Source: a bacterium (GTDB lineage Bacteria > Patescibacteriota > Minisyncoccia > UBA6257 > MFKM01). From it: DNA of 64,000 nucleotides. The position numbers were made by a program, and so were the translations under genes. Numbering within the stretch: the first letter of the stretch is position 1; the number at the start of each line of letters is the position of its first letter. Below the pieces are notes generated by a model. That model made no database searches. It was not told the DNA's origin and worked only from the letters and a program-made list of their open reading frames with translations. The DNA is taken from positions 1,368-65,367 of the forward strand of contig JAUYAV010000011.1 of assembly GCA_030693325.1 (NCBI GenBank), read 5' to 3'. Of the stretch, positions 5,106-59,253 are shown one piece after another.

Positions 5106-5424
5106 TGAGTTCATAAACATAATTACGGTAATTGCCGTAATTACAGTAATTACTGTAATTTTTATGAATTGAACGGTTTGAATCCGAGGATTATGACATC
5201 AATCACGGCGGTTATAGAAAGTAATTTCTATATTCCAATAGTTTAATTAATTTAGCTAACTAATATCGGTGGAACCCTAATTGATGATTAGGGCAATACC
5301 GAGGGAATTCTTTATAAATTAAAGAAGCCCGTAGAGACTAAGCGTTAGCCTCCGCCAAAATTTTGTAAAAAAATGGGCGGATGAAGATATAGTCCAATAC
5401 ACTTAGTAATAAGTGACCAATATG
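5106..5424 (+). mobile_element. ORF-less group I intron in 23S rRNA at the I-CreI/I-CeuI-type site (exon CCGU|CGUGAGACAGG, about E. coli 2593-2596)
   Basis: exon homology breaks after gggttcaaaccgt and resumes at cgtgagacaggttggtctctatc; the 3' part has the group I P7/P3 signature ggcggatgaagatatagtcc; intron ends in G and the upstream exon in U. Confidence 0.7.
5121..5160. repeat. tandem array of the 8-bp palindrome GTAATTAC (9-bp period) inside the P1/P2 region of intron 1, embedded in a larger hairpin at 5097..5180
   Basis: aattacggtaattgccgtaattacagtaattactgtaatt; same array at 7511..7550 and 17545..17584. Confidence 0.8.
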
Positions 5425-6738: not shown

Positions 6739-7521
6739 ATGACCCCTCGCTTGGTTAAACAACTGCTTTACGGCGCTTTCTATTTTTTAATAATATTTAT
6801 TATTTTTTGGCTGATTTATATTTTATTTTTGAAACCCGCGCCCACTTGTTCCGATGGACATCGGAATCAAAACGAAATCGGCATTGATTGTGGCGGATTT
6901 TGTCCGTCCTGTGAATTAACCCAATTGAAAAATTTGGCGGGTGATTGGGCTTTAGTTTTGCCGGCTGGAGAAAACGGGATAACGCTGTTGGCTGAGATTA
7001 CTAATCCCAATTTGAATTTCGGGGCTGAAAGTTTTTCTTACCAATTCAAAATCATCGGCCCTTTCGGCTTACTGAAAACCGTTGGAGGTCAGTCATCTAT
7101 TTACAGCGGCGAAATAAAATATTTAATAGCAACCGCCGTTCCGGTTAATCCTCAAGACGCAAAACGGGTGGAACTGGAAATATCTGCCTCCAGTACTGTT
7201 TGGCAATCGCAGGAAAAAATGCCCAAACCTGATTTAGCGAATCCCTCTCATCAAACAGTAATTTCAAACGGAAGCGTAATAGTGAAAGGTATTATTAGAA
7301 ATAAAAGTCCTCTTTTAATATCTCAAACAAAAATCATAGCCCTTATTTATAATTTTGATGGAAGCCAAATCCTAAACGCGTCTTACACAACCTTAGCTGG
7401 CCTCAAAGGGGATGAACAGCGGGCCTTTTCCATTGGATTCCCGAAAGGCGATTGGACCAAAAAAATAGATACAAACAGAACCAAGATTTTTATTGAACCC
7501 CAAATTACCAAATTACAGTAA
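6739..7521 (+). CDS. hypothetical membrane-anchored protein with a Cys-rich segment
   Basis: 260 aa ORF; N-terminal TM FYFLIIFIIFWLIYILFL; CSDG...CGGFCPSC. Confidence 0.5.
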   Translation: MTPRLVKQLLYGAFYFLIIFIIFWLIYILFLKPAPTCSDGHRNQNEIGIDCGGFCPSCELTQLKNLAGDWALVLPAGENGITLLAEITNPNLNFGAESFSYQFKIIGPFGLLKTVGGQSSIYSGEIKYLIATAVPVNPQDAKRVELEISASSTVWQSQEKMPKPDLANPSHQTVISNGSVIVKGIIRNKSPLLISQTKIIALIYNFDGSQILNASYTTLAGLKGDEQRAFSIGFPKGDWTKKIDTNRTKIFIEPQITKLQ

Positions 7522-7550
7522 TTACAGTAATTGCCGTAATTACGGTAATT
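7511..7550. repeat. GTAATTAC tandem palindrome array overlapping the TAA stop of the upstream gene
   Basis: aattacagtaattacagtaattgccgtaattacggtaatt. Confidence 0.8.
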
Positions 7551-7558
7551 AAATTTTT

Positions 7559-8623
7559 ATGTTTAAGAAACTTGATTGGTGGCTTATCGGCGCTTTGATT
7601 TTTATGGCCGCGGCCAGTTTAATATCGCTTTCGTCTACCAAACCGGCGCTTTTTCAAATCCAACTTATTTGGTACGCATTGAGCTTTTTGATTATTTTTT
7701 TTGCGGCAAAAATTAACTGGCGTTGGCTTATAACCCAAAATTGGTTTTTGCTGTCTTTCTATTGGCTGACGATCATTTTATTGATTGCCGCCTTTTTTTT
7801 CAGGCCTATCCGAGGCGCCCAAAGCTGGTTGATAATCGGAAATTTCCAGTTTCAGCCATCGGAATTGGCAAAAATTTCCCTGATTCTTATTTTCGCCAGT
7901 TTTTTCTCGCGCCGTTATCTTGAAGTTTCATTGATTAAAAACATAGCCGCTTCATTTTTTTATTTTTTTATTCCGGCGGCGCTGGTAGCGCTTCAACCGG
8001 CTTTGGGTATGGCTATAATTTTTTTCGGTATTTGGTTCAGTTTTTTGATAGTAAGCGGCTTGAAATGGCAGAGGATTTTCGCCAGTTTTTTAATTTTTAT
8101 TTTGGTATTTTCTTTTCTTTGGATGACTTTTCTGAGGCCCTACCAGAAAGAAAGGGTTTTGGGATTTATCTTTCCGGACCGGAATCCTTTGGGAACGAAT
8201 TATAATGTCATTCAGTCAAAAATCGCCATCGGTTCGGCGGGATTATTCGGAAAAGGCTTCCAGCAGGGGACGCAAAGCCGGCTGGGTTTTCTGCCTGAAG
8301 CCCAAACCGATTTTATTTTTTCCGCTTTCGTGGAAGAATGGGGATTGGTCGGCGGCCTTCTTTTGATTGCCGCTTTTTTGCTGATTATTTTCAGAATAAT
8401 TAAAATTGGCATCAAATCGGAAGGCAACTGCGCCAAATTTATTTGTTTGGGCGCCGCTATCGCCCTCGGTTCGCAATTTTTCTTTAATATCGGTTCTTGT
8501 CTGGGGCTTTCACCGGTGGTGGGGATAACTTTTCCTTTTTTCAGTTACGGAGGATCTAGCTTATTGACTAACGCTTTGCTCATCGGTATAATACAAAATA
8601 TTGCAATTGAATCCTCGTTTTAA
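7559..8623 (+). CDS. SEDS-family peptidoglycan glycosyltransferase (RodA/FtsW)
   Basis: 10-TM ORF with SEDS motifs QPSELAKISLIL, LPEAQTDFIFS, FSYGGSS. Confidence 0.85.
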   Translation: MFKKLDWWLIGALIFMAAASLISLSSTKPALFQIQLIWYALSFLIIFFAAKINWRWLITQNWFLLSFYWLTIILLIAAFFFRPIRGAQSWLIIGNFQFQPSELAKISLILIFASFFSRRYLEVSLIKNIAASFFYFFIPAALVALQPALGMAIIFFGIWFSFLIVSGLKWQRIFASFLIFILVFSFLWMTFLRPYQKERVLGFIFPDRNPLGTNYNVIQSKIAIGSAGLFGKGFQQGTQSRLGFLPEAQTDFIFSAFVEEWGLVGGLLLIAAFLLIIFRIIKIGIKSEGNCAKFICLGAAIALGSQFFFNIGSCLGLSPVVGITFPFFSYGGSSLLTNALLIGIIQNIAIESSF

Positions 8624-17339: not shown

Positions 17340-17546
17340 ATGAATAAGAAACAGTGTTTTTTTTGTTCCCAAAATTTAAAAGACGTTGATTATAAAGAGA
17401 TTGAATTACTCCGGCGTTTTGTGTCCGGCCAAAGCAAAATCATTGACCCGCGATATTCCGGCATCTGCGCCAAACACCAGAGAAAACTGGCGCAAGCGAT
17501 AAAAAGAGCCCGGTATTTAGGATTATTGCCGTTTGTTTCAAGATAA
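17340..17546 (+). CDS. rpsR: 30S ribosomal protein S18
   Basis: CFFC...DYKEIELLRRFVSGQSKI...RKLAQAIKRARYLGLLPF. Confidence 0.9.
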   Translation: MNKKQCFFCSQNLKDVDYKEIELLRRFVSGQSKIIDPRYSGICAKHQRKLAQAIKRARYLGLLPFVSR

Positions 17547-17584
17547 TTACAGTAATTACTGTAATTACCGTAATTACGGTAATT
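17545..17584. repeat. GTAATTAC tandem palindrome array overlapping the rpsR TAA stop
   Basis: aattacagtaattactgtaattaccgtaattacggtaatt. Confidence 0.8.
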
Positions 17585-17593
17585 GAATAAAAA

Positions 17594-18124
17594 ATGTCTT
17601 TCGATTTTTATATTTTTCAAGCTTTCCATAATTTAGCCAATAAGTCTAATTTTTTTGATGGGCTGATTGTTTTTTTGGCCGGCTACCTCCAGTATGTTTT
17701 ATTAGCTTTGGCGATTTTTCTGTTGCTTGCGAAAATAAAAGATTGGCGCCATCAGCTTTATATCGTTTCGGTTTTTCTACTTTCGGCTATTATCAGCCGG
17801 GGATTGATTACGGAAATTATCCGATTTTTCTATCACCGATTAAGGCCATTTTTGGCTCTCAATCTTACGCCCCTAGTCAAAGATTTCAGCGGCTCTTTCC
17901 CTTCCGGCCATATGACTTTGTATTTCGCTCTGGCTTTAACTATTTTTTTGATAAGCCGAAAATGGACCTGGTTTTTTGTCGCCAGCGTTATTTTGATGGG
18001 CCTGGCAAGAATCGCCGCCGGCGTTCACTGGCCTTCGGATATTATAGGCGGAATTCTAATTGCTATTATCAGTTATTTTATTGTCAAAAAAATTCTTCCC
18101 TCAAACAATAAAACCGCCAATTAA
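17594..18124 (+). CDS. PAP2-family membrane phosphatase (undecaprenyl-diphosphatase or PgpB-like)
   Basis: PAP2 motifs RLRP, PSGH, ARIAAGVHWPSD. Confidence 0.8.
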   Translation: MSFDFYIFQAFHNLANKSNFFDGLIVFLAGYLQYVLLALAIFLLLAKIKDWRHQLYIVSVFLLSAIISRGLITEIIRFFYHRLRPFLALNLTPLVKDFSGSFPSGHMTLYFALALTIFLISRKWTWFFVASVILMGLARIAAGVHWPSDIIGGILIAIISYFIVKKILPSNNKTAN

Positions 18125-18142
18125 GCGGTTTTATTTTTCTTG

Positions 18143-18226
18143 TGCCCGAGGAGAGAGTCGAACTCTCACGACCTAAACGGTCAATGGATTTTGAGTCCAT
18201 CGCGTCTGCCATTCCGCCACCCGGGC
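18143..18226 (-). tRNA. tRNA-Leu (anticodon CAA), long variable arm
   Basis: hand-folded cloverleaf: acceptor gcccggg/ctcgggc, anticodon loop cuCAAaa, T-loop ttcgact. Confidence 0.75.
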
Positions 18227-18278
18227 TCCTTTTTAATTATAACGCATAAATTTTAACAGCCAACTCGCGAAATTCATA

Positions 18279-18423
18279 GCCAAACCAAACTTGTCTGAGA
18301 AAATATCCCGCAGGCACTGAAAGATTGGTTTCGCCGTAGGCGAATTTCAGCGCCGAGGGAAAAGAAAATTTTGCCGCTGGAGCAAAATTATTCTGGTTTT
18401 CGAAGGCAAGTTTGGTTTGGCTA
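18279..18423 (+). repeat. copy A of a ~145-bp structured repeat family (16-bp terminal inverted repeat AGCCAAACCAAACTTG, conserved cores, variable internal hairpin)
   Basis: direct comparison with copies at 20663..20801, 43333..43476 and 57606..57748. Confidence 0.85.
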
Positions 18424-18489
18424 AAACTAAAATCAATTCGGAAATGTATATTGATAATGCCATAATTTTTAGCTATAGTAAAGAAGAAT

Positions 18490-19299
18490 ATGGCCCGCGT
18501 TATTGCAATCTGTAATCAAAAAGGGGGAGTCGGAAAAACAACCACGGCGATGAACTTGGGCGCTTATTTAGCCGCTTTGGGACGGCGCTGTCTTTTGGTT
18601 GATTTTGACCCCCAAGCCAACGCCACTTCCGGTTTGGGGATAACGCCGCCACAAGAGTCAGTTTACACCGCTTTGATGAGCGGTCTAATCCCCAGCCATT
18701 TGATCAGAAGAACCGCCATTTTCGGCTACGAAGTTCTGCCGGCTTCCCAGGATTTAGCCGGCGCTTTGGTGGAATTAATTTCTTTGCCCGAGCGGGAATA
18801 TCAGTTAAGAAAAACTATCAATCAACTCCGGCATTTATACGATTTTATATTAATTGACTTGCCGCCCTCGCTTAATCTTCTGACTGTTAACGGGTTGATA
18901 GCCGCCGATGAAGTTTTGATGCCGATTCAATGCGAATATTACAGTTTGGAGGGGATAGGCCAGCTTTTAAAAACTATTGACCTTATTCGCGAAAATCTCG
19001 GCTATAAATTAAACGTGGCGGGTGCGGTTTTAACGATGTATAATAAAAAAGAACGGCTTTCTCGGGAAGTGGTTAAAGAAGTTAGAAGACATTTTCCTTA
19101 TCATGTTTTTAACTCTGAAATACCCCGAGCAGTCGCTTTGGCCGAAGCCCCAAGTTTCGGCAAACCCATTATTCTTTACGCTCCTAACACCCAAGCGGCT
19201 CGGGCTTATCTGCTTTTAACCAAAGAAATCATCAGCCAACAAGAGAAAGGCGCAAATAGTCAATTCGCTAATCAAGTTTTTGGTAACCTAATAACATAA
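18490..19299 (+). CDS. parA: ParA/Soj chromosome-partitioning ATPase
   Basis: deviant Walker A KGGVGKTT. Confidence 0.9.
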   Translation: MARVIAICNQKGGVGKTTTAMNLGAYLAALGRRCLLVDFDPQANATSGLGITPPQESVYTALMSGLIPSHLIRRTAIFGYEVLPASQDLAGALVELISLPEREYQLRKTINQLRHLYDFILIDLPPSLNLLTVNGLIAADEVLMPIQCEYYSLEGIGQLLKTIDLIRENLGYKLNVAGAVLTMYNKKERLSREVVKEVRRHFPYHVFNSEIPRAVALAEAPSFGKPIILYAPNTQAARAYLLLTKEIISQQEKGANSQFANQVFGNLIT

Positions 19300-19309
19300 T
19301 TTTTATAAT

Positions 19310-20344
19310 ATGCTCGGACGAGGTTTAGAATCTTTAATACCACGGAAAGATAATAAAGAAACGCCGGAAACCGAACAAAAAAATGCGTCTTCGGCGTCGG
19401 CGCCGGCTTCGGATTTTTTTTCATCCGATAGTCCGGAACTTAAAAAAGATTTAGCTGGTGTCTTACCTAAGCCGGAAGAAAATTTGAAATTAAACATCCA
19501 AGAACCTGCGCCGAAAAAAGATTTTCAGGAACTCCCCAGAAAACATCAGGAAGCCATATTTTTGATTGAAGTTGATGAAATCAAACCCAATCCTCATCAG
19601 CCAAGGCGCCATTTTGACGAAGAATCATTGAAAGAATTAGCCGCCTCCATTCAGGAATTCGGCATTCTCCAGCCGCTTCTCGTTTCCAAAATTGAAGAAG
19701 AAACCGAAAACGGCACCAAGGTAAGCTACCAATTGATAGCCGGTGAAAGAAGGTTTATGGCCGCCAAAATGCTCGGCCTGGAACGGGTGCCGGCAATTAT
19801 TAAAAAAATTGACCTTGAAACCAATAACCTGGAAATGGCGATCATTGAAAATATCCAGCGTGTTGACCTCAATCCGATAGAATCAGCCCGCGCTTTTGCC
19901 AAACTCCAGGACGAATTCCGCTTAACCCAGAGAGAAATCGCCCAAAGAGTGGGAAAAAGCCGGGAAGCGGTAGCCAATACTTTGCGGTTATTAAGCTTGC
20001 CCTCAAATATCCAGGATGCCCTGGCCCAAAAGAAAATAAACGAAAGCCAGGCCAGGATGCTTTTAACCGTCAGTGATTTAAACCAACAACAAGCGCTTTT
20101 TCAGGAATTAATAAACGGCGGCCTCAGTGTCAGAGATTTACGGGAAAAAATAAATCCCGAAGAAACAACCGGCCGTACCGAAGACCCGGAAAGTAAATAT
20201 ATGGAAAACCGGCTGGAAGAAGCGCTCGGCACTAAAGTCAATATCAGTAAAAATCAAAATAAAGGCAAAATCGTCATTAAATTTTTCTCACCGGAAGAAC
20301 TTGACGCCATTATCAAAAAAATCTGCCAGCCAGAGTCAGAATAA
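19310..20344 (+). CDS. parB: ParB/Spo0J partition protein
   Basis: ParB box LIAGERRFMAAKMLG; HTH; low-complexity N-terminus. Confidence 0.9.
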   Translation: MLGRGLESLIPRKDNKETPETEQKNASSASAPASDFFSSDSPELKKDLAGVLPKPEENLKLNIQEPAPKKDFQELPRKHQEAIFLIEVDEIKPNPHQPRRHFDEESLKELAASIQEFGILQPLLVSKIEEETENGTKVSYQLIAGERRFMAAKMLGLERVPAIIKKIDLETNNLEMAIIENIQRVDLNPIESARAFAKLQDEFRLTQREIAQRVGKSREAVANTLRLLSLPSNIQDALAQKKINESQARMLLTVSDLNQQQALFQELINGGLSVRDLREKINPEETTGRTEDPESKYMENRLEEALGTKVNISKNQNKGKIVIKFFSPEELDAIIKKICQPESE

Positions 20345-20356
20345 TTTTGTCCAGGA

Positions 20357-20383
20357 GCAAACCAAACTTGCCTTCGAAAACCA
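20357..20383. repeat. solo terminal fragment (gcaaaccaaacttgccttcgaaaacca) of the 145-bp repeat family
   Basis: matches the reverse complement of the family right end. Confidence 0.6.
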
Positions 20384-20400
20384 TACTTTTAATTAATGTG

Positions 20401-20630
20401 ATTTTTCACAAAACCTTTTCCGCCAGCAAATTTCCGTTCAGATAAATTATCTTCGCTCGTCCTCAGAAGGTAACGAAAAATATCGAACTCACCCAATCTT
20501 ACGAGGTTTAACCTCATAAGATTGGGATTCAGACAGCGAATATTTTTCTACTTCTTTCGTCCTCGCTCAGTAATTTATAACTTCACTTCAACAGGCTGGC
20601 TAAAAAAAGGTTTTGTGAAAAAAATCTTCC
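20401..20630. repeat. 230-bp imperfect long palindrome bounded by inverted repeats gatttttcacaaaacctttt / aaaaggttttgtgaaaaaaatc, centred on cgaggtttaacctca
   Basis: arms read on both strands; the central motif recurs at 22225 and 41424. Confidence 0.7.
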
Positions 20631-20662
20631 TTACAAAACTTTCCTGAAAAGAAATTCAGGAG

Positions 20663-20801
20663 CAAACCAAACTTGTCTGAGAAAATATCCCGCAACCCCG
20701 ACGGGCTGGGTCTCGCCGAAGGCGAGCCGTCGGGGCGAGGGCAAAGAAAATTTTGCCGCTGGAGCAAAATTATTCTGGTTTTCGAAGGCAAGTTTGGTTT
20801 G
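20663..20801 (+). repeat. copy C of the 145-bp structured repeat family
   Basis: same termini and cores as copy A; different but still base-paired internal hairpin (ccccgacgg...ccgtcgggg). Confidence 0.85.
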
Positions 20802-20834
20802 TTTATTATTTTTTCCTCAACAACCTTAGATTAA

Positions 20835-21248
20835 TTAATATCTAATCTTTTTAATCTTATAAATTATTTTTATCGGGGAATTGATTTCTATTTCATCGGA
20901 AACTTTGTGATTCAGGAGCGCTTTGCCTACCGGCGACTCCGAAGATATTCTTCCTTCGCTGGGACTGGCTTCCAGTGTTCCCACGATTTCATATTCTTTA
21001 ATTTTACCATCGGAATTTTCCAGGGTAACAGTGGCCCCTAAATTGACGGTATCTTGTTTTTCTTTAGAAGGAATTTTGATAAGTTCGGCGTTTTTAAAAA
21101 CGTATTCCAGTTCCGCTATTTTAGATTCCGACAAATCAAAATTTTCCTCGGCTTTGGCCAGCCGGATTATCTTTAAATTCTTTAAATCCTGGTATTCTTT
21201 TTTTATCCTTTCCAGTCCTTTTTTAGTTAAATAAATTTTTTCTGACAT
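20835..21248 (-). CDS. greA: transcription elongation factor GreA
   Basis: N-terminal coiled coil; C-terminal FKBP-like GATVTLE...YEIVG...SPVGKALL. Confidence 0.85.
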   Translation of the reverse strand: MSEKIYLTKKGLERIKKEYQDLKNLKIIRLAKAEENFDLSESKIAELEYVFKNAELIKIPSKEKQDTVNLGATVTLENSDGKIKEYEIVGTLEASPSEGRISSESPVGKALLNHKVSDEIEINSPIKIIYKIKKIRY

Positions 21249-21822: not shown

Positions 21823-21862
21823 GTTCCCTCACTGATATACTTAAGTATATCAGTGAGGGAAC
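21823..21862. repeat. 40-bp perfect palindrome gttccctcactgatatacttaagtatatcagtgagggaac (core GATATACTTAAGTATATC)
   Basis: same core with different, still complementary flanks at 26281 and 26455. Confidence 0.85.
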
Positions 21863-22224
21863 TTATTACCCGGTGGCGGCGGTGAAAGTGCGGAGAGACT
21901 AAAGGAAGGGGAAATAACCATAGAAGACAAGAAATTCTATGAGGGATTTTTTGAGGAAATCGGGGAAGAACTAAGGAAATCAAAGGGAATGGGAGAGGGG
22001 AACAAAAAGCAGGATTAAATTATAGGCGGTAGGCTGTCCGCGCTAAAAGGCTTTGAGGGCAGATTCGTGGATGAGACGGCGATGAGTTTTGGGCTACCTA
22101 TAGATTCTAATTTCTCTTACTTGATATAGCCGCGAGCAAAGATTAAAATGGGCGGATAAAATCCCCAAAACTTTGCTTTAATATCGGAGGGATAATACTG
22201 TAAGAATTAATCTAGTATGAAGTA

Positions 22225-22247
22225 CTATCGAGGTTAAACCTCGATAG
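22225..22247 (-). terminator. hairpin ctatcgaggttaaacctcgatag immediately after the pilin-like gene stop
   Basis: palindrome read directly; position. Confidence 0.5.
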
Positions 22248-26280: not shown

Positions 26281-26318
26281 ATCTTATACTGATATACTTA
26301 AGTATATCAGTATAAGAT
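26281..26318. repeat. 38-bp perfect palindrome atcttatactgatatacttaagtatatcagtataagat (GATATACTTAAGTATATC family)
   Basis: read directly. Confidence 0.85.
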
Positions 26319-26454
26319 TATCCTCTTGATTAGAATATCGGATTTAAAGCATTAGATTAGAGTATTAGTATCGGAACAAACCCGATATTTCCTATATTTT
26401 TATTTCCTATATTTACAATATTTTCATTTATTTCCATTTTACATTTCTTCCAAC

Positions 26455-26478
26455 AGCGATATACTTAAGTATATCGCT
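26455..26478. repeat. 24-bp palindrome agcgatatacttaagtatatcgct (same core family)
   Basis: read directly. Confidence 0.8.
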
Positions 26479-26626
26479 CCGGCAACATAGACTAAGCCCA
26501 ATGTACCCGTCGCAAAGGTTTATTTTATCTCCGATGTCTATCGGGGGACCCTGCCCGCCTTCGCGGTGCCGTAGCCCCGCTTCGGTGGGCGGAAGCCCGT
26601 ACCCGTCACATAGTTATCCCCATTTA

Positions 26627-29772: not shown

Positions 29773-30129
29773 TTGATTATGGTTATTAGAATAGTAAAAA
29801 CTACAATTAAAAAATCGGAGCTTTTGGAAATAGCAAGTGAAGGATTCGGCGATATTGTTAAAGCGGTTGTAGACATTGGGCAAGGAATTATGGCTGTTGG
29901 CGGAGAACTTCACGCCGATGAGGAAGTTTTACTGACAGAACAAGAAGATTCAAAACGAGAAAATACCTGGGGAATAAACATTTATCCCCAAAAATCAGAA
30001 AACAAATGGATTGAGTTTGATTCAATGGTTAATCTTAAGCCGCATTTTGGCAATCGTTCCCGCGATGTGGAAAATCCGGAAATAAGAGAAAAAATCAGAG
30101 ATATCGTCAAAAAATTAATTACCGTTTAA
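29773..30129 (+). CDS. hypothetical small protein (resembles DUF5674-type proteins)
   Basis: GIMAVGGELHADEE...WGINIYP; family assignment from memory only. Confidence 0.45.
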   Translation: MIMVIRIVKTTIKKSELLEIASEGFGDIVKAVVDIGQGIMAVGGELHADEEVLLTEQEDSKRENTWGINIYPQKSENKWIEFDSMVNLKPHFGNRSRDVENPEIREKIRDIVKKLITV

Positions 30130-30152
30130 ACCTAAGTACAATCAATTGGACT
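30124..30152. terminator. hairpin cctaagtacaatcaattggacttaggg (same family as 49608..49632)
   Basis: read directly; overlaps the stop of the preceding gene. Confidence 0.5.
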
Positions 30153-30191
30153 TAGGGTAATGGTTTTAAATATTTTAAAATATTTTCAAGA

Positions 30192-31464: not shown

Positions 31465-32585
31465 AGATAGCTTTAGCGCATGATTATTTAAACCAGTGCG
31501 GTGGAGCGGAAAACGTTCTGAAAGTTTTAGCCGAAATTTTTCCCGAAGCGCCCATTTATACTCTTTTCTACGACGAAAATAAAACCCGGAGTTATTTTAA
31601 AAACCGCGTCAAAAAAACCAGTTTCCTTGATTTTGGAATCGTCAGGAATCATCATCGGGCTTTTATCCCTTTACTGCCGTTGGCCAGCAGCAATTTAAAG
31701 ATTGAACCTGAATATGATTTGGTTATATCTTCCAGCGCCGGCTATGCCAAAGGTTTTAATTCCAAAAACGCCTTCCATATTTGTTATTGCCATACTCCGC
31801 TCCGCTATGCCTGGGAGGAAAATTATCTTCAAGGATTGGATTTATTCCATATACCCTTATTAAAAACTTTGGCTAAACCAGTACGCGCCGCTTTAAGAAG
31901 CTGGGATAAAAAAGCCAGCCGCCGAGTGGATGTATTTATCGCCAATTCTTATTTTATCGCCCAAAAAATCAAGAATTTCTATAATCGGGAAGCCGAAGTA
32001 ATCTATCCGCCGATTGATTTGAAAAAATTCTATCCCGAACCCTCTCAAAAAACCGGTGATTATTTTTTGATGGTAGGCCGACTGCTTCATTACAAACGTT
32101 TTGACCTCGGCATTGAGGCCTTTAATCAACTAGGGCTTCCTTTAAAAATAGTCGGTGAAGGTCCGGAACTTCAAAAATTAAAATCAATGGTTAAATCTCC
32201 TTTGATAGAATTTTGCTCTTATATTGAGAACCTGGACGAGCTCCGGAAAATTTATAGCGGAGCTAAAGCTTTAATATTCCCCCAGATTGAGGACTTTGGG
32301 ATGGTGGCGGCCGAAGCCCAAGCCTGCGGCTTGCCGGTAATAGGCTATAACACCGGAGGAGTTAAAGAGATTATTAAAGAAGGGAGAACCGGCTTATTAT
32401 TTAACGAGCAAACGCCGGAAGCCTTGATAAAGGCAGTTTATTTATTTGAAAAAACTGATTTTTCCAAATCGGAAATCATTGAAAATGCCCAACGATTTTC
32501 CAAAGAAAATTTTAAATCAAAATTTCAAGAAATAATCAATAAAATAAAAAATGAAGAAAACAAAATAAATCATTTACTATTGTAA
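31461..32585 (+). CDS. glycosyltransferase family 4
   Basis: GT-B C-terminal EDFGMVAAEAQACGLPVIG...GGVKE. Confidence 0.8.
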   Translation: MKIALAHDYLNQCGGAENVLKVLAEIFPEAPIYTLFYDENKTRSYFKNRVKKTSFLDFGIVRNHHRAFIPLLPLASSNLKIEPEYDLVISSSAGYAKGFNSKNAFHICYCHTPLRYAWEENYLQGLDLFHIPLLKTLAKPVRAALRSWDKKASRRVDVFIANSYFIAQKIKNFYNREAEVIYPPIDLKKFYPEPSQKTGDYFLMVGRLLHYKRFDLGIEAFNQLGLPLKIVGEGPELQKLKSMVKSPLIEFCSYIENLDELRKIYSGAKALIFPQIEDFGMVAAEAQACGLPVIGYNTGGVKEIIKEGRTGLLFNEQTPEALIKAVYLFEKTDFSKSEIIENAQRFSKENFKSKFQEIINKIKNEENKINHLLL

Positions 32586-32614
32586 TTCCGCGATCGTGGA
32601 ATTACAATAGTAAA
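32573..32614. repeat. 42-bp near-perfect palindrome tttactattgtaattccgcgatcgtggaattacaatagtaaa overlapping the GT4 stop codon
   Basis: second copy (perfect) at 59191..59232. Confidence 0.85.
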
Positions 32615-32642
32615 TTTATAATGACTAAAGAAAACAAAAAAT

Positions 32643-41367: not shown

Positions 41368-41423
41368 TTTTGATATTTTCCAGTTTCTTGCTATAAAACA
41401 AACTCGCCATTTTTTAAATTATC

Positions 41424-41444
41424 GAGGTTCGACCTCGATAATTT
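41424..41444. repeat. hairpin ttatcgaggttcgacctcgataa (CGAGGTTNNACCTCG family)
   Basis: similar to 22225..22247 and the centre of 20401..20630. Confidence 0.5.
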
Positions 41445-41564: not shown

Positions 41565-41760
41565 TAAATATGAGACCTAACCCGTAGGGGCAACCTACGG
41601 CAGGGTTATAAAAACCAGTAACGGATAAAAAGCTCCTAGTCAGAGCTCCGTTACTGGTCATATGGGGAAACCCGTATGGGGGTCGCAAGACCTCGCTGGC
41701 TGGGAGCTTTGTGTTTTCATAAAGCTAAAATGTCGAACCCAGCTAGCGTTAGTTTCTTTA
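41565..41760 (+). ncRNA. GC-rich structured leader or candidate cis-regulatory RNA upstream of a secreted-protein gene
   Basis: stack of hairpins in AT-rich surroundings: cgtagg-GGCAA-cctacg (GNRA loop), accagtaacgga...tccgttactggt, ggtc-GCAA-gacc, repeated cccgtaNgggg; identity unknown. Confidence 0.3.
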
Positions 41761-43292: not shown

Positions 43293-43332
43293 AAAGCCCC
43301 GGCTTAGTCAGGACTTTTTATTTTCTTGTTGA

Positions 43333-43476
43333 GGACTTACGCCGTTGCCTTGAAGAATATCCCGCAGGCGCTGAAAGCTTGGTTTCGCCGCAGGCGAATT
43401 TCAGTGCCGAGGGAAAAGAAATCCCGACCGCTGGAGTCGGAATATTCTGGTTCTGAAAGGCAATGGCGGAAGTCCT
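43333..43476 (+). repeat. copy D (divergent) of the 145-bp structured repeat family: different terminal stem (aggacttacgccgttgcc / ggcaatggcggaagtcct) but same internal cores
   Basis: conserved atatcccgcagg, gccgagggaaaagaaa, cgctgga loop and attctggtt; stems replaced by compensatory sequences. Confidence 0.75.
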
Positions 43477-43577
43477 GTTATCCGAACAAATTTTTTGAGC
43501 TAATGAATTGCGCCGAATATTTATAGAAAATTAACCGGTTCGTCTTAATCAAGATTTCATGTTAAAATATTCATAAC

Positions 43578-49495: not shown

Positions 49496-49607
49496 TACGT
49501 AGTAATTTTACCATAAAAAGTATAAAATTACTACCATTAGACGACTAGGCAATATCTATTAATCTAGCATAATACTGCCAAAATCTCCTTAGCTTCGCAA
49601 ATCTAAA

Positions 49608-49632
49608 AACTAAGTCCAATCGATTGGACTTA
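49608..49632 (-). terminator. hairpin ctaagtccaatcgattggacttagg overlapping the fmt stop (same family as 30124..30152)
   Basis: perfect palindrome. Confidence 0.55.
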
Positions 49633-50490
49633 GGGTATTATTTGAGGTTTTCCGCCTTCAAATTGGATTTTAGTCAATTTCAATTTTCCGTCAACCAATT
49701 CGGCCTCCAAAAGTTTTACCCGTTTTTTGTTTTGTATGGAACTATTCGCGCGAATTAGAGAAGATAACTCTTCCGGAATTAAAATAGTCCAAACTCCCGG
49801 CTCCGGATTAAGAGCGCAGATTTTTCTTTCAATAATTATAGGATCATCCTTTTCTAAATCAACATAGCCATCTTCGGTTTTGAATTTTTTCGTGTAAGTA
49901 GCCTGGCTTTCGTCTTGCGGAAGGGGAGTGATTTCGCTTTTTAAAAACTTCGGCAGGGTTTCAATCAGTAAATATCCAGCCAACTCCGCCAGTAATTGCT
50001 GTAATTTTGAAAATTGAAAATTAGAAATTGAAAATTCCAATTTTCGCTGGGCGAAAATTGGGCCATGGTCTACTTTCTCATCCACCAAAAACAAAGTGAC
50101 GCCGGTTTCGGATTCTCCGCTAAGAATAGCCGATTGAATAGGGGAGGAACCGCGGTATTTCGGCAAAAGCGAAGGGTGAACGCCGATAGTTCCCAGCCGC
50201 GACATTTCTAAAATTTCTTTGGGAATAATTTGGGCGTAAGCGGCGACGACAGCAAAATCTATTTCGCCAATTTCTAATTGGAAATTTCTAATTTCTAATT
50301 TTTCCGGCTGATAAACTTTAATCTCATATTTTTCGGCCAGAACTTTAGTCGGCGGGGGAGTGATGATTTTTTTCCTGCCAACCGGCCTATCGTGGTTGCA
50401 AACAACCGCCGCCGGCGGAAAACCGGATTTAATCAATTTTTCCAAAATAACAGCCGCAAAATCAGGCGTGCCGAAAAATGCGTATTTCAT
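49630..50490 (-). CDS. fmt: methionyl-tRNA formyltransferase
   Basis: MKYAFFGTPDFAAVILEKL...; conserved def-fmt order. Confidence 0.85.
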   Translation of the reverse strand: MKYAFFGTPDFAAVILEKLIKSGFPPAAVVCNHDRPVGRKKIITPPPTKVLAEKYEIKVYQPEKLEIRNFQLEIGEIDFAVVAAYAQIIPKEILEMSRLGTIGVHPSLLPKYRGSSPIQSAILSGESETGVTLFLVDEKVDHGPIFAQRKLEFSISNFQFSKLQQLLAELAGYLLIETLPKFLKSEITPLPQDESQATYTKKFKTEDGYVDLEKDDPIIIERKICALNPEPGVWTILIPEELSSLIRANSSIQNKKRVKLLEAELVDGKLKLTKIQFEGGKPQIIP

Positions 50491-56293: not shown

Positions 56294-57757
56294 TTATAAA
56301 TAGTCAAGAGGATTCAAAGTCGCTCCATAGGGCTGGAGGCCGCAAGTGTTGCTGTTTTTTATTTCGGGTGAAAGCAAGGTCTGGCCTCCGCCGTAGATAT
56401 TCGCATAAACCGTAAAATGGAGATGCGAGCCGGTAGAAAAACCTGTATTACCACTATAACCAATCCGGACTCCCCTATTTACGATATCGCCGACTTTCAC
56501 CTCTTGCAAAGAAAGATGAGTATATAATGTTGAAAGATTATTGTCGTGTTTAATCACGATATATTTTCCATAAGAACCGCCGTATTTCTTTTTACCATAC
56601 CAAACCGGAGGACAATATTTATCGGTATTCCCGACAGCTATCACCCGGCCGTTTTCGGCCGCGAAAACCTCCGTCGAGACAGGTACGCCGATATCAATTC
56701 CGTTATGAAATCCGCCATTGCCCGTGCCTTCATTGCAGGCCGGATAAGATTTTCTGGCAAAAGAATCGACAATACAGCCGTATCCCTGGGTTAAATTCGC
56801 TTTCAAATCTAAATTCAAGGGCATGGCTAAAACTCCAGACCGCGGTACAGGCAGGATATTCGGATCAATTTTTGCTCTTAATTCGGATTCAATTTTGTCA
56901 ATTTCGGCGCCGACTGCCTGTTGTATTTTTTCCAGCTCATCAATTCTTTGCTGATAGGCGCTTCCTTGTTTTTTATTGACGGCCAAAAGATTTTGTTGCT
57001 CTGCTTTTTGATCTTGAACTATAAGTTTTCTATTCTGCGAATCGGCTTTTGCCGCTTCCTGATTTTGCTCTTTCTGCGAAACATCGCCTAATTTCTGGAA
57101 ACGTTCGTCGTGGAGCTGCCGAAGCGTGGCTACTTCCGTGGCTAAATTAGTATTAAGGTCAAGCAAGTTTTGAGTTTCGGAAATAGTGTCAGTCAAGCTT
57201 TTATTTTTCAACAAAATATTTAAAATCCCTTCGCCTTCTTTTTCATTAAGCTCTCTTAATAAATTAATGATGGCCTGTTTCTCAATATCGGACTTATTTC
57301 CTATATCTTTGATTTCACTATTCAAAGATTCAATTTCCAAGCCAAGTTTTTCAATAGTGATTCCGCTGGATTTAATTGACAAATTTAACTGGCTGATTTG
57401 ATAATCGTTCTTTTTAATATCTTTTTGAATAGTGGCGCTTTCTTTGTTTAATTCGTTGAGATTATCAAGAATTTTTTGGCGCTCGGAATCAATCTGTTGA
57501 AGCTCGGCGCTTTTCTGGTTGATAGCATCTCTGAGATCTTGAGGAGTGGAAGCCTGAACGGTAGAAAATAGAAAATAGAAAATAGAAAATAGAAAGATAA
57601 AAACAATCCAACCAAACTTGTTTGAGAAAATATCCCGCAGGCGTCCAAAGATTGGTCTCCGCGAAGCGGAGTTTGGACGCCGAGGGAAAAGAAAATTTTG
57701 CCGCTGGAGCAAAATTATTCTGGTTTTTGAAAACAAGTTTGGTTGGATGCTATTCAT
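56294..57757 (-). CDS. M23/LytM-family peptidoglycan metalloendopeptidase with long coiled-coil (EnvC-like); the N-terminal 48 codons are read through a copy of the 145-bp repeat
   Basis: coiled coil; M23 motifs HNGIDIG and GNTGFSTGSHLHF; ATG overlaps the gltX stop (ATGAATAG). Confidence 0.8.
   Translation of the reverse strand: MNSIQPNLFSKTRIILLQRQNFLFPRRPNSASRRPIFGRLRDIFSNKFGWIVFIFLFSIFYFLFSTVQASTPQDLRDAINQKSAELQQIDSERQKILDNLNELNKESATIQKDIKKNDYQISQLNLSIKSSGITIEKLGLEIESLNSEIKDIGNKSDIEKQAIINLLRELNEKEGEGILNILLKNKSLTDTISETQNLLDLNTNLATEVATLRQLHDERFQKLGDVSQKEQNQEAAKADSQNRKLIVQDQKAEQQNLLAVNKKQGSAYQQRIDELEKIQQAVGAEIDKIESELRAKIDPNILPVPRSGVLAMPLNLDLKANLTQGYGCIVDSFARKSYPACNEGTGNGGFHNGIDIGVPVSTEVFAAENGRVIAVGNTDKYCPPVWYGKKKYGGSYGKYIVIKHDNNLSTLYTHLSLQEVKVGDIVNRGVRIGYSGNTGFSTGSHLHFTVYANIYGGGQTLLSPEIKNSNTCGLQPYGATLNPLDYL
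57563..57596. repeat. heptanucleotide tandem repeat (AGAAAAT)x4.5 inside the peptidase N-terminal TM-coding region
   Basis: tagaaaatagaaaatagaaaatagaaaatagaaag. Confidence 0.8.
57606..57748 (+). repeat. copy E of the 145-bp structured repeat family (termini atccaaccaaacttgtt / aacaagtttggttggat)
   Basis: internal hairpin ggcgtccaaa..ctccgcgaagcggag..tttggacgcc is fully compensatory relative to copy A. Confidence 0.85.
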
Positions 57758-59144: not shown

Positions 59145-59190
59145 AATATTTGATTATAAATCAAAATAAGCTTTTTGGCTATCAAGCAAA

Positions 59191-59232
59191 TTTACTATTG
59201 TAATTCCACGATCGTGGAATTACAATAGTAAA
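59191..59232. repeat. 42-bp perfect palindrome tttactattgtaattccacgatcgtggaattacaatagtaaa between murG and gltX
   Basis: second copy at 32573..32614. Confidence 0.85.
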
Positions 59233-59253
59233 TTCAAAATTCAATTTTTCTAA

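Follow-up and report, generated by a model that had tools for sequence, protein, structure and literature searches.

What fills the 490 bp that separate parB from greA in a Patescibacteria genome? The genomes of these bacteria are tiny and compact, and their convergent genes often touch or overlap. The stretch analyzed here (the window; 64,000 nucleotides of contig JAUYAV010000011.1, a sequence from a Patescibacteria metagenome-assembled genome (MAG) with 41% GC, placed in Paceibacterota near Jorgensenbacteria) carries parB at 19310-20344 on the + strand and greA at 20835-21248 on the - strand, as the left and right genes of a convergent pair. The spacer between them (20345-20834) is non-coding throughout and holds a short repeat end (the stub), a 227-bp palindromic element (F2), and one copy, designated C, of a 147-nt element (F1); as a whole it folds with z = -10.5. 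All three parts had been described in an initial annotation of the sequence, and all three were recovered. F1 and F2 are structured repeats widespread in Patescibacteria, with conserved unpaired cores, covarying stems, and one preferred strand. With moderate confidence, we regard the spacer as a whole as a lineage-specific mosaic of structured, recombining repeats, similar to the bacterial interspersed mosaic elements (BIMEs) and probably acting in RNA at convergent 3' ends.

F1 was defined by a covariance model (R1) built from the four copies in the window, all on the + strand: copy A at 18277-18423, upstream of parA (168 bits); copy C at 20659-20805; copy D at 43331-43477, which has a different P1 and P3 "allele"; and copy E at 57604-57750, between two - strand genes. 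Copy C, which had been proposed as a full element on the greA side of the spacer, scored 156.9 bits over its full length of 147 nt (E = 2e-38) and is built from P1, UCCC/GGGA plus P2, and P3, which meet in a three-way junction; its folding energy was -73.4 on the + strand versus -63.3 on the - strand. Compensatory changes were already present in 28 of the 58 predicted pairs among the four window copies. Searches of other genomes with R1 retrieved 26 further full-length members with E values from 1e-16 to 1e-37, bringing the family to 30 members from 26 sources, all at E <= 1e-16. Their hosts were Paceibacterota, Saccharibacteria, and Jorgensen-, Azam-, Harrison- and Colwellbacteria. Across the 30 sequences, 95.5% of the pair cells were paired, as opposed to 34-53% in controls with slid partners, and double-sided changes were found in 52 of the 58 pairs.

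The unpaired junctions of F1 (AAUAUCCCGCA, a GMUUGGU bulge, CGAGGGAAAAGAAA, and UAUUCUGGUU) are near-invariant, its loop is mostly CCGCUGGAG, and about 50 core nucleotides are invariant. The U.G pair that closes P1 is retained in 26 of the 30 members, and the outer half of P1 is copy-specific with complementarity kept. The sense strand is the more stable one in 29/30 members. The tips of P2b are often C(GNA)G mini-hairpins, including GCGAAGC, which forms a very stable DNA hairpin, and the P3 loop is replaceable, as seen in L120 and L013 (L numbers designate related loci). Immediately 5' of P1, many copies carry GAAATTCA, among them copies A and C and those of L069 and L013. A repeat search showed that the 20627-20658 segment between the two elements of the spacer contains this usual F1 5' flank preceded by a degenerate outer-stem motif, ACAAAACTTTCC. 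A comparison of flank against flank revealed an additional outer stem around some copies (e.g., L059), and a universal one around every F1 was thus rejected. The 3' flanks of 26 copies contained no consistent T-run, and no conserved promoter-like sequence was detected among the 5' flanks compared. Copy E differs in its surroundings: about five tandem repeats of AAAATAG (57560-57600) stand immediately 5' of it, it is antisense between its two - strand neighbours, and at its 3' end it abuts the stop of a 464-aa gene.

The F2 element (20400-20626) had been annotated as a 230-bp imperfect palindrome throughout, bounded by inverted repeats. The terminal inverted repeat is real, being perfect over 18 nt (20402-20419 and 20605-20622) and imperfect out to 20400 and 20626, and so is the relationship between the two halves: the left half and the reverse complement of the right half share 83 matches over 110/117 nt, with an alignment score of 33 versus -15.8 +/- 4.8 in shuffles. 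As a correction to the initial annotation, the blocks where the two halves are not complementary represent conserved internal loops rather than decay. Folding yielded z = -7.5 for the + strand and z = -10.4 for the - strand, and the element is best described as a long modular hairpin on the latter. The left arm of its outer stem (20402-20426, partner 20598-20622) consists of a copy-specific part, TTTTTCAC, followed by a family motif, AAAACCTTTTCCGCCAG. Further inward lies the conserved base (20440-20464, partner 20551-20581), formed by AGATAAATTATC and TTCGCTCGTCCTC, the latter an internal loop in which purines predominate on the - strand. The variable tip is an apical hairpin (20492-20526) with arms of 17 bp at 20492-20508 and 20510-20526, centred on CGAGGTTTAACCTC.

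The F2 termini have no second copy within the window, and it was in metagenome contigs that relatives were found. Short BLAST matches beside F1 in other genomes led to a conserved 19-mer, AGATAAATTATCYTCGCTC, and a metagenome scan with the exact 19-mer returned 35 loci, of which about 25 were true F2 members and about 20 were distinct, on Patescibacteria contigs. Conversely, nhmmer profiles of the two F2 ends match the window at 20408-20462 (E = 4.6e-12) and 20558-20616 (E = 3.2e-15). Written in the AGAT orientation, the outer stem of the family pairs AAAAYCTTTT..GCCAG with CTGGC..AAAAGRTTTT, or, in a covarying variant, CCAAAACTTCCC..CAGCC with GGCTG..GGGAAGTTTGG. A 13-nt spacer follows inward, and then an invariant base stem of AGATAAATTATC and GTAATTTAT; with its loops, the conserved base reads AGATAAATTATC-YTCGCTC ... 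TCGCTYRGTAATTTAT. The YTCGCTC internal loops on both sides are pyrimidine-rich in this orientation and purine-rich on the preferred strand, and the interior of the element is a variable core. Other F2 members have the AAAACCTTTTCCGCCAG motif at their ends as well, and it is also enriched next to F1 elements, namely in L013, L047, L059, L069, and L085.

The window copy of F2 belongs to a long-hairpin subtype, also represented by L089/L100, L087, L108, L118, and L119, whose members share a scaffold and differ in their tips. An alignment of six sequences (the window, L089, L087, L108, L118, and L119) was paired in 94.5% of cells (slid controls, 38-52%) and contained double changes in 23 of 65 pairs (slid controls, 1-6), for a structure derived from the same alignment. 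The consensus energy was -53.7 for the - strand of the window and -28.8 for the + strand. Single-sequence folds agreed with this preference: in 18 of 19 members the strand opposite to the AGAT orientation was the more stable, with a mean advantage of 10.8 kcal/mol. F2 stems are copy-specific yet complementary in their outermost 4-15 bp, with CCCCC/GGGGG, GTAG/CTAC, and other combinations taking the place of the TTTCAC/GTGAAA of the window. Extra hairpins nested inside the cores of some members, and two F2 copies on some contigs, were also observed (L094 124-331 and 964-1197; L117 414-663; L101; L111), as were minimal forms (L088 and L116) whose entire core has shrunk to a short loop.

Since the tips differ on one scaffold, the "centre" of the palindrome is the most variable part of F2. 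The initial annotation had pointed out that this centre is reused at two other sites of the window, one of which it labeled a terminator. The recurrence was confirmed: a 14-mer from the centre is found again at 22229-22243 and 41423-41437 with 1-2 mismatches, giving 6 strand-hits versus 0.4 expected, a number reached in 0 of 100 shuffles. Both stand-alone sites are perfect palindromes of 21-23 bp, CTATCGAGGTTAAACCTCGATAG (22225-22247) and AAATTATCGAGGTTCGACCTCGATAATTT (41416-41444), which among 850 kb of related loci occur only in this genome. The first lies about 30 nt past the stop codon of an 879-aa pilin-like gene, and the second just upstream of the start of a - strand gene. The terminator label is unproven because one of the two palindromes lies upstream of a gene, and from its position the 41416-41444 site looks more like an operator than a terminator. 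An origin of the F2 core as a decayed F1 was also considered and rejected, as R1 with its filters off gave generic hairpin matches only.

The third component, the stub, occupies 30 nt (20354-20383, AGGAGCAAACCAAACTTGCCTTCGAAAACCA) and is read as a 3'-terminal remnant of an inverted F1 on the - strand. Its positions 20358-20383 are complementary at 26/26 positions to the 3' arm of copy C (20776-20801), in keeping with the solo repeat end annotated there, and an AGGAG lead-in extends it to 20354. According to a motif scan, it is the only F1 arm fragment in the window outside the full copies, and it is of the 3'-arm type on the - strand. Although AGGAGCAAACCAAACTTGCCTTCGAAAACCA starts like the 5' end of this F1 subfamily, the stub differs from the 5' arm of copy C exactly at the positions where the family is not Watson-Crick paired (the wobble and the tandem G.A): T has become C at the wobble, GA has become TC at the G.A, and TAT has become CCA into the junction. 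An ideal F1 3' end, reverse-complemented, gives the sequence of the stub, which may therefore be what is left of the 3' terminus of an inverted F1 from a former head-to-head pair. Alternatively, template switching may have turned a 5' arm into a perfect complement. Inverted F1 pairs do exist elsewhere, with a complete head-to-head pair in L071 and an inverted partial copy in L013, and a different type of stub (the 5' 41 nt of F1) is present in the same kind of nest in L114/L120. The duplex of the stub with the 3' arm of copy C was calculated at -49.0 kcal/mol, compared with -34.7 for the copy's own 5' arm, and for the whole spacer the folding energy was -170.1 when the stub was allowed to pair versus -149.8 when it was forced to stay unpaired. 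These models predict that in a + strand RNA the stub would outcompete the 5' arm of F1.

The arrangement of the spacer is not unique to the window. The order F2 then F1 recurs in L059 (1674-1841, then 1926-2075), in L097 (60-244, then 251-393), and in L114/L120. With both elements in the same written orientation, their preferred strands are opposite, so the two units stand head-to-head. Each of the four independent composites is flanked by a convergent gene pair, one stop codon of which adjoins the 3' end of F2 and the other that of F1, corresponding to the topology gene(+) stop - F2(-) - F1(+) - stop gene(-); in the window, F2 faces the parB stop and F1 the greA stop. The 5' ends of the two elements are separated by gaps as short as 15-32 nt. 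Among loci fetched for F2 only (169 kb), three of four F1 matches were less than 170 nt from an F2 and on the expected side, a proximity for which we estimate a chance of about 1e-4. The GAAATTCA flank is continuous with the 3' outer stem of F2 in L120, a hint that F1 copies now standing alone may derive from composites. Only the window and L059 have a long inverted repeat around the composite, and such a repeat is not a general feature.

The same tendency is seen for single elements. In a survey of gene neighbours (with crude calls of open reading frames (ORFs)), 18 of the 28 genes located on the F1 3' side were encoded on the opposite strand, mostly 0-42 nt away, and the median gap to the gene on the 5' side was about 150 nt; the placement of F2 relative to its neighbours was similar. 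Ten genes neighbouring the elements were housekeeping genes, including those for S9, AlaRS, PolA, the CCA enzyme, a histidine kinase, and an ABC transporter, and no transposase, reverse transcriptase, or Y1/RAYT-type gene (RAYT, REP-associated tyrosine transposase; REP, repetitive extragenic palindromic) was detected among the ten. Other F2 members adjoin murB, fmt-like, ABC-transporter, and other genes and show no link to parAB.

Comparison with relatives revealed that the junction between parB and greA is variable. On three contigs of a relative with 82% identity in ParB, parB and greA overlap by 4 nt and there is no spacer, while in the lineages with 86% and 73% identity another gene abuts the parB stop, again without a spacer. 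A relative with 80% identity (L005) shares the flanks TAATTTTGT(T)CC ... TATTTTTTCC(C)TC with the window and carries a different element, F3, between them. F3 was identified at L005 3969-4111 (also in L006) and at L100 1-90, and is bounded by the inverted repeats CCAAGGAAAGAAATCTCCTT and AAGGAAATTCCTTTCCTTGG with CGCTCGCTCC-rich arms. An exact 22-mer of the L005 element also lies beside a window-type F2 in L100, and F3 itself was not found in the window. The mosaic is flanked by an imperfect 9-nt direct repeat read from the sequence (8/9 match) and possibly representing a target duplication, whose left copy, ATTTTGTCC (20344-20352), overlaps the parB stop codon and whose right copy, ATTTTTTCC (20808-20816), lies within the ancestral spacer segment common to the window and L005 (20806-20834); the same pair of motifs flanks the different insert of L005. 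The nested insertions or hotspot first proposed for this region thus hold insofar as repeat DNA was acquired at a variable junction, with empty sites in some relatives and F3 in another, but the region is not a random pile of repeats, given that the order of F2 and F1 recurs. A further resemblance, between 20389-20415 and the end of the gene that follows parB in L008, amounts to a 14-mer and is attributed to chance on account of the AT-rich sequence, an E value of about 0.5, and the inconsistent order.

Turnover was also evident upstream of the operon and inside F1 itself. Copy A stands where L002, L005, and L008, which lack the copy, have part of a conserved parA leader, and neither copy A nor copy C is present in the relatives compared. 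These two copies are direct repeats with 83% identity and nearly identical P1 and P3; they lie 2382 bp apart from start to start and bracket the whole parAB operon, which makes them a potential substrate for its deletion or duplication. In L114 (8418-8565) and L120 (2952-3107), which are the same locus from two metagenomes, flanks and P1 are 100% identical and the P2-P3 segment of about 85 nt is wholly different, with sharp boundaries at the conserved junctions. This points to cassette-like exchange of the interior by gene conversion between F1 copies.

Among described systems, REP sequences and BIMEs, together with MITE-like small mobile sequences (MITE, miniature inverted-repeat transposable element), are the nearest concept (PMC3184786; PMC2229807). 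REP sequences and BIMEs of Enterobacteria and Pseudomonas favour convergent gene pairs, vary between strains, and have been linked to mRNA 3'-end stability and recombination (PMC3184786). Like F1 and F2, they are extragenic, non-coding, and hairpin-folding, and are found either as single units or in mosaics whose units alternate in orientation and which contain conserved linker motifs; the four F2(-)/F1(+) composites between convergent genes and the inverted F1 pair of L071 fit this description. On the other hand, REP units are simple G+C-rich palindromes of 20-40 nt, whereas F1 and F2 measure 147 and 227 nt (147-230 nt), have a GC content of 0.36-0.61, and possess a three-way junction or a long modular hairpin, invariant unpaired cores, and a strand preference. 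They also differ in host phylum and in having no RAYT among the neighbours scanned. No description of these elements was found in the literature on Patescibacteria, or the candidate phyla radiation (CPR). A scan of the window against Rfam 15 at gathering thresholds reported only rRNA, tRNA, a group I intron, and LOOT, and neither F1 nor F2; at E <= 10, 18100-21000 and the L002 copy of F2 gave only chance matches to microRNAs and small RNAs. A hammerhead core, suggested by a likeness of CUGAGGACGAGCGAA/GAGGACGAAAG seen by eye, was not supported.

Under the reading that we favour, the elements would have arrived by insertion or recombination, a step suggested by the compact relatives that have no spacer, and the copies would then exchange parts by gene conversion; either such conversion or the decay of an inverted head-to-head F1 partner could have produced the perfectly complementary stub. 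Each element would be transcribed as the distal sense end of one convergent mRNA, with F1 sense to parB and F2 sense to greA. Folding would allow them to define or protect the 3' ends of the mRNAs and to keep antisense transcription out of the neighbouring gene, in the manner of REP/BIME, and the orientation-specific structured core probably binds a factor. This mode of action at 3' ends, read from sequence and position, is put forward with low confidence. A simpler REP-like reading, a hairpin directly after the stop codon that stabilizes the mRNA of that gene, fails to explain the strand preference, as the conserved structure is on the strand read from the far gene.

Several observations weigh against this reading. 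The gene on the 5' side of F1 was on the other strand in 10 of 22 cases in the crude ORF calls, and copy E, antisense to both of its neighbours, is a misfit to a 3' untranslated region. Intrinsic termination does not account for the elements either: no U-tract follows P1, so the F1 elements are not intrinsic terminators, and a scan for such terminators gave two minor - strand matches at chance level. To our knowledge, termination signals in Patescibacteria are poorly known. In addition, if the elements fold as single-stranded DNA, G-T wobble would give the preference to the same strand. The covariation of F2 comes from six sequences and a structure taken from the alignment in which it was counted, and the origin of the stub is ambiguous between an inverted-copy remnant and a converted 5' arm. 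Finally, the relatives are only 80-86% identical in ParB, a distance at which insertion here and deletion there are not strictly separable.

A bolder form of the argument is tentative. In it, F1 and F2 would be two undescribed Patescibacteria-specific classes of structured RNA that make up a head-to-head 3'-end or insulator module; F1 would be a factor-binding or catalytic, exchangeable cassette, and the stub (-49 versus -35 kcal/mol) would switch its fold off in read-through transcripts from parB. As the stub is a single case, the switch function is treated as speculation.

That the repeats are purely selfish DNA appears unlikely. The spacer would then be a set of nested or adjacent MITE-type insertions mobilized by a transposase in trans, without function for the host, and the folds would be a by-product of terminal inverted repeats. 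The elements are indeed multi-copy, non-coding, and inverted-repeat-bounded, their presence varies among relatives, shortened remnants exist, and the imperfect 9-nt direct repeat flanks the mosaic. In these respects they recall Correia/NEMIS, RUP, ERIC, BOX, and RPE, which are multi-copy, intergenic sequences of 100-400 bp that are bounded by inverted repeats, co-transcribed with their neighbours, polymorphic in presence and absence, and, in the case of BOX, modular (PMC3184786; PMC2229807). The pattern of conservation, however, is the reverse of that of a MITE. The terminal inverted repeats of MITEs are constant, whereas the outermost repeats of F1 and F2 are copy-specific and the interior is conserved, with unpaired junctions invariant at phylum-level distances. 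MITEs also carry target duplications, and 19 F2 copies were without consistent direct repeats at their ends; no parent insertion sequence is known, and the strand asymmetry is strong. Neither a transposase among the neighbours nor a true member in viral contigs was detected, the scans of the latter giving one chance match each, and carriage by phages was accordingly rejected. Rather than as classical MITEs, both repeats behave as structured, strand-specific elements in which the unpaired cores are conserved and the stems covary.

Similarly improbable is the idea that F1, and perhaps F2, are independent small-RNA genes, encoding trans-acting or catalytic RNAs from promoters of their own and clustering where they are tolerated. 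Much about F1 resembles a classical structured RNA of the kind collected in Rfam, including the tight three-way junction, the invariant core and conserved loop nucleotides, the U.G pair, the covariation in 52/58 pairs, and the strand specificity. Copy E, which is not readable from either neighbouring gene, would be accounted for, and the divergent 5' ends of the composites would suit outward transcription. Nevertheless, no conserved promoter-like sequence was found upstream, and the gap between the divergent 5' ends can be very short. Four copies in 64 kb of a small genome, with interchangeable P2/P3 and a replaceable P3 loop, would be unusual for an RNA gene with a single function, and this copy number, the variable position, and the exchange of helix cassettes are atypical for riboswitches and housekeeping RNAs.

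Less probable still is a role as folded single-stranded DNA, in which the elements, once exposed by replication, would serve for example as signals for priming or recombination or as REP/RAYT-like signals. Such DNA could equally well show strand-specific folding with G-T wobble, the C(GNA)G tips of P2b, GCGAAGC among them, would suit it, and the copy-specific complementary extensions of the outer stems, as well as the stub as a perfect complement, fit template switching at DNA hairpins. Nonetheless, no Y1/RAYT-type gene is among the ten neighbours, and no signal of a replication origin was seen, since a search for one near parAB found no skew turn in the window. F1 and F2 lie within 30 nt of each other and prefer opposite strands, so that an explanation based on one replication strand would not fit both.

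An assembly artefact, i.e., a chimeric join or a collapsed palindrome in a short-read MAG, is very improbable. A Logan contig of SRR13727537 is identical to 18390-20569 of the window and thereby extends through the stub and the left arm and apex of the palindrome into its right arm, of which it covers 60 nt. A second Logan contig encodes the exact GreA protein (an identity at the protein level) and continues for 63 nt past its stop, to about 20772. Both contigs end inside repeats, and 20570-20771 is supported by the MAG assembly alone, but the right arm and the junction architecture match independent family members from other samples. The agreement of the contigs indicates that the joins from parB through the stub to the apex of the palindrome, and from the 3' arm of copy C to greA, are not peculiar to one assembly. 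Least credible of all is a partition site, that is, a parS-like centromere or ParB loading site, which is suggested only by the position beside parB and two 6-nt half-site look-alikes (TTTCAC/GTGAAA, the basis of the initial comparison with parS) and is contradicted by a pattern search of the window that, at up to 3 mismatches, gave nothing beyond chance for the 16-bp palindrome TGTTNCACGTGAAACA (one match, with 3 mismatches, lies elsewhere in the window), by the 200 bp between half-sites that lie in the copy-specific outermost F2 stem and are not kept in the family, by the unrelated genes beside other F2 copies, and by the relatives with 82% identity in ParB that do without the region.

Other features were noted in the window and its relatives. 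Three clusters of 4-6 tandem 9-bp units, AATTACNGT, with the palindromic core GTAATTAC, are present at 5112-5173, 7502-7563, and 17536-17606; two of them lie around the 23S-5S rRNA region and the third is immediately upstream of a PAP2 gene, which is followed by tRNA-Leu and parA. They could be an array of protein-binding sites. The group I intron match (5190-5416) overlaps the 3' end of the 23S rRNA match, and the LOOT RNA identified with Rfam (41574-41694, 92 bits) is directly before an ORF at 41676. The genome is rich in distinct intergenic palindromes: CTGATATACTTAAGTATATCAG occurs at three sites (21824-21865, 26281-26322, and 26448-26489), and a 51-nt palindrome is present as a pair with 94% identity (32572-32622 and 59190-59240). 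A 32-nt repeat pair shows 91% identity (30128-30159 and 49606-49637). The sister contigs L002 (1-6668) and L009 (1-6115) each contain one gene of about 2230 aa in which domains of RpoB (Rpb2) and RpoC (Rpb1) are combined, suggesting that the beta and beta' subunits of RNA polymerase are fused.

Both repeats of the parB-greA spacer thus turn out to be members of widespread families that are structured, strand-specific, and apparently uncatalogued, and whose head-to-head architecture recurs. Compact genomes still hold several folded elements of 150-230 nt, and the cores of these elements are better conserved across the phylum than ParB. They break short-read assemblies, and the direct repeats that bracket parAB could drive rearrangements. 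If they are mobile DNA, they would be of an unusual kind, in which the interior is conserved over the termini and helices are swapped like cassettes. If they do work in RNA, they would represent new classes of structured RNA and would provide a handle on how transcripts are ended and insulated in these uncultivated bacteria.

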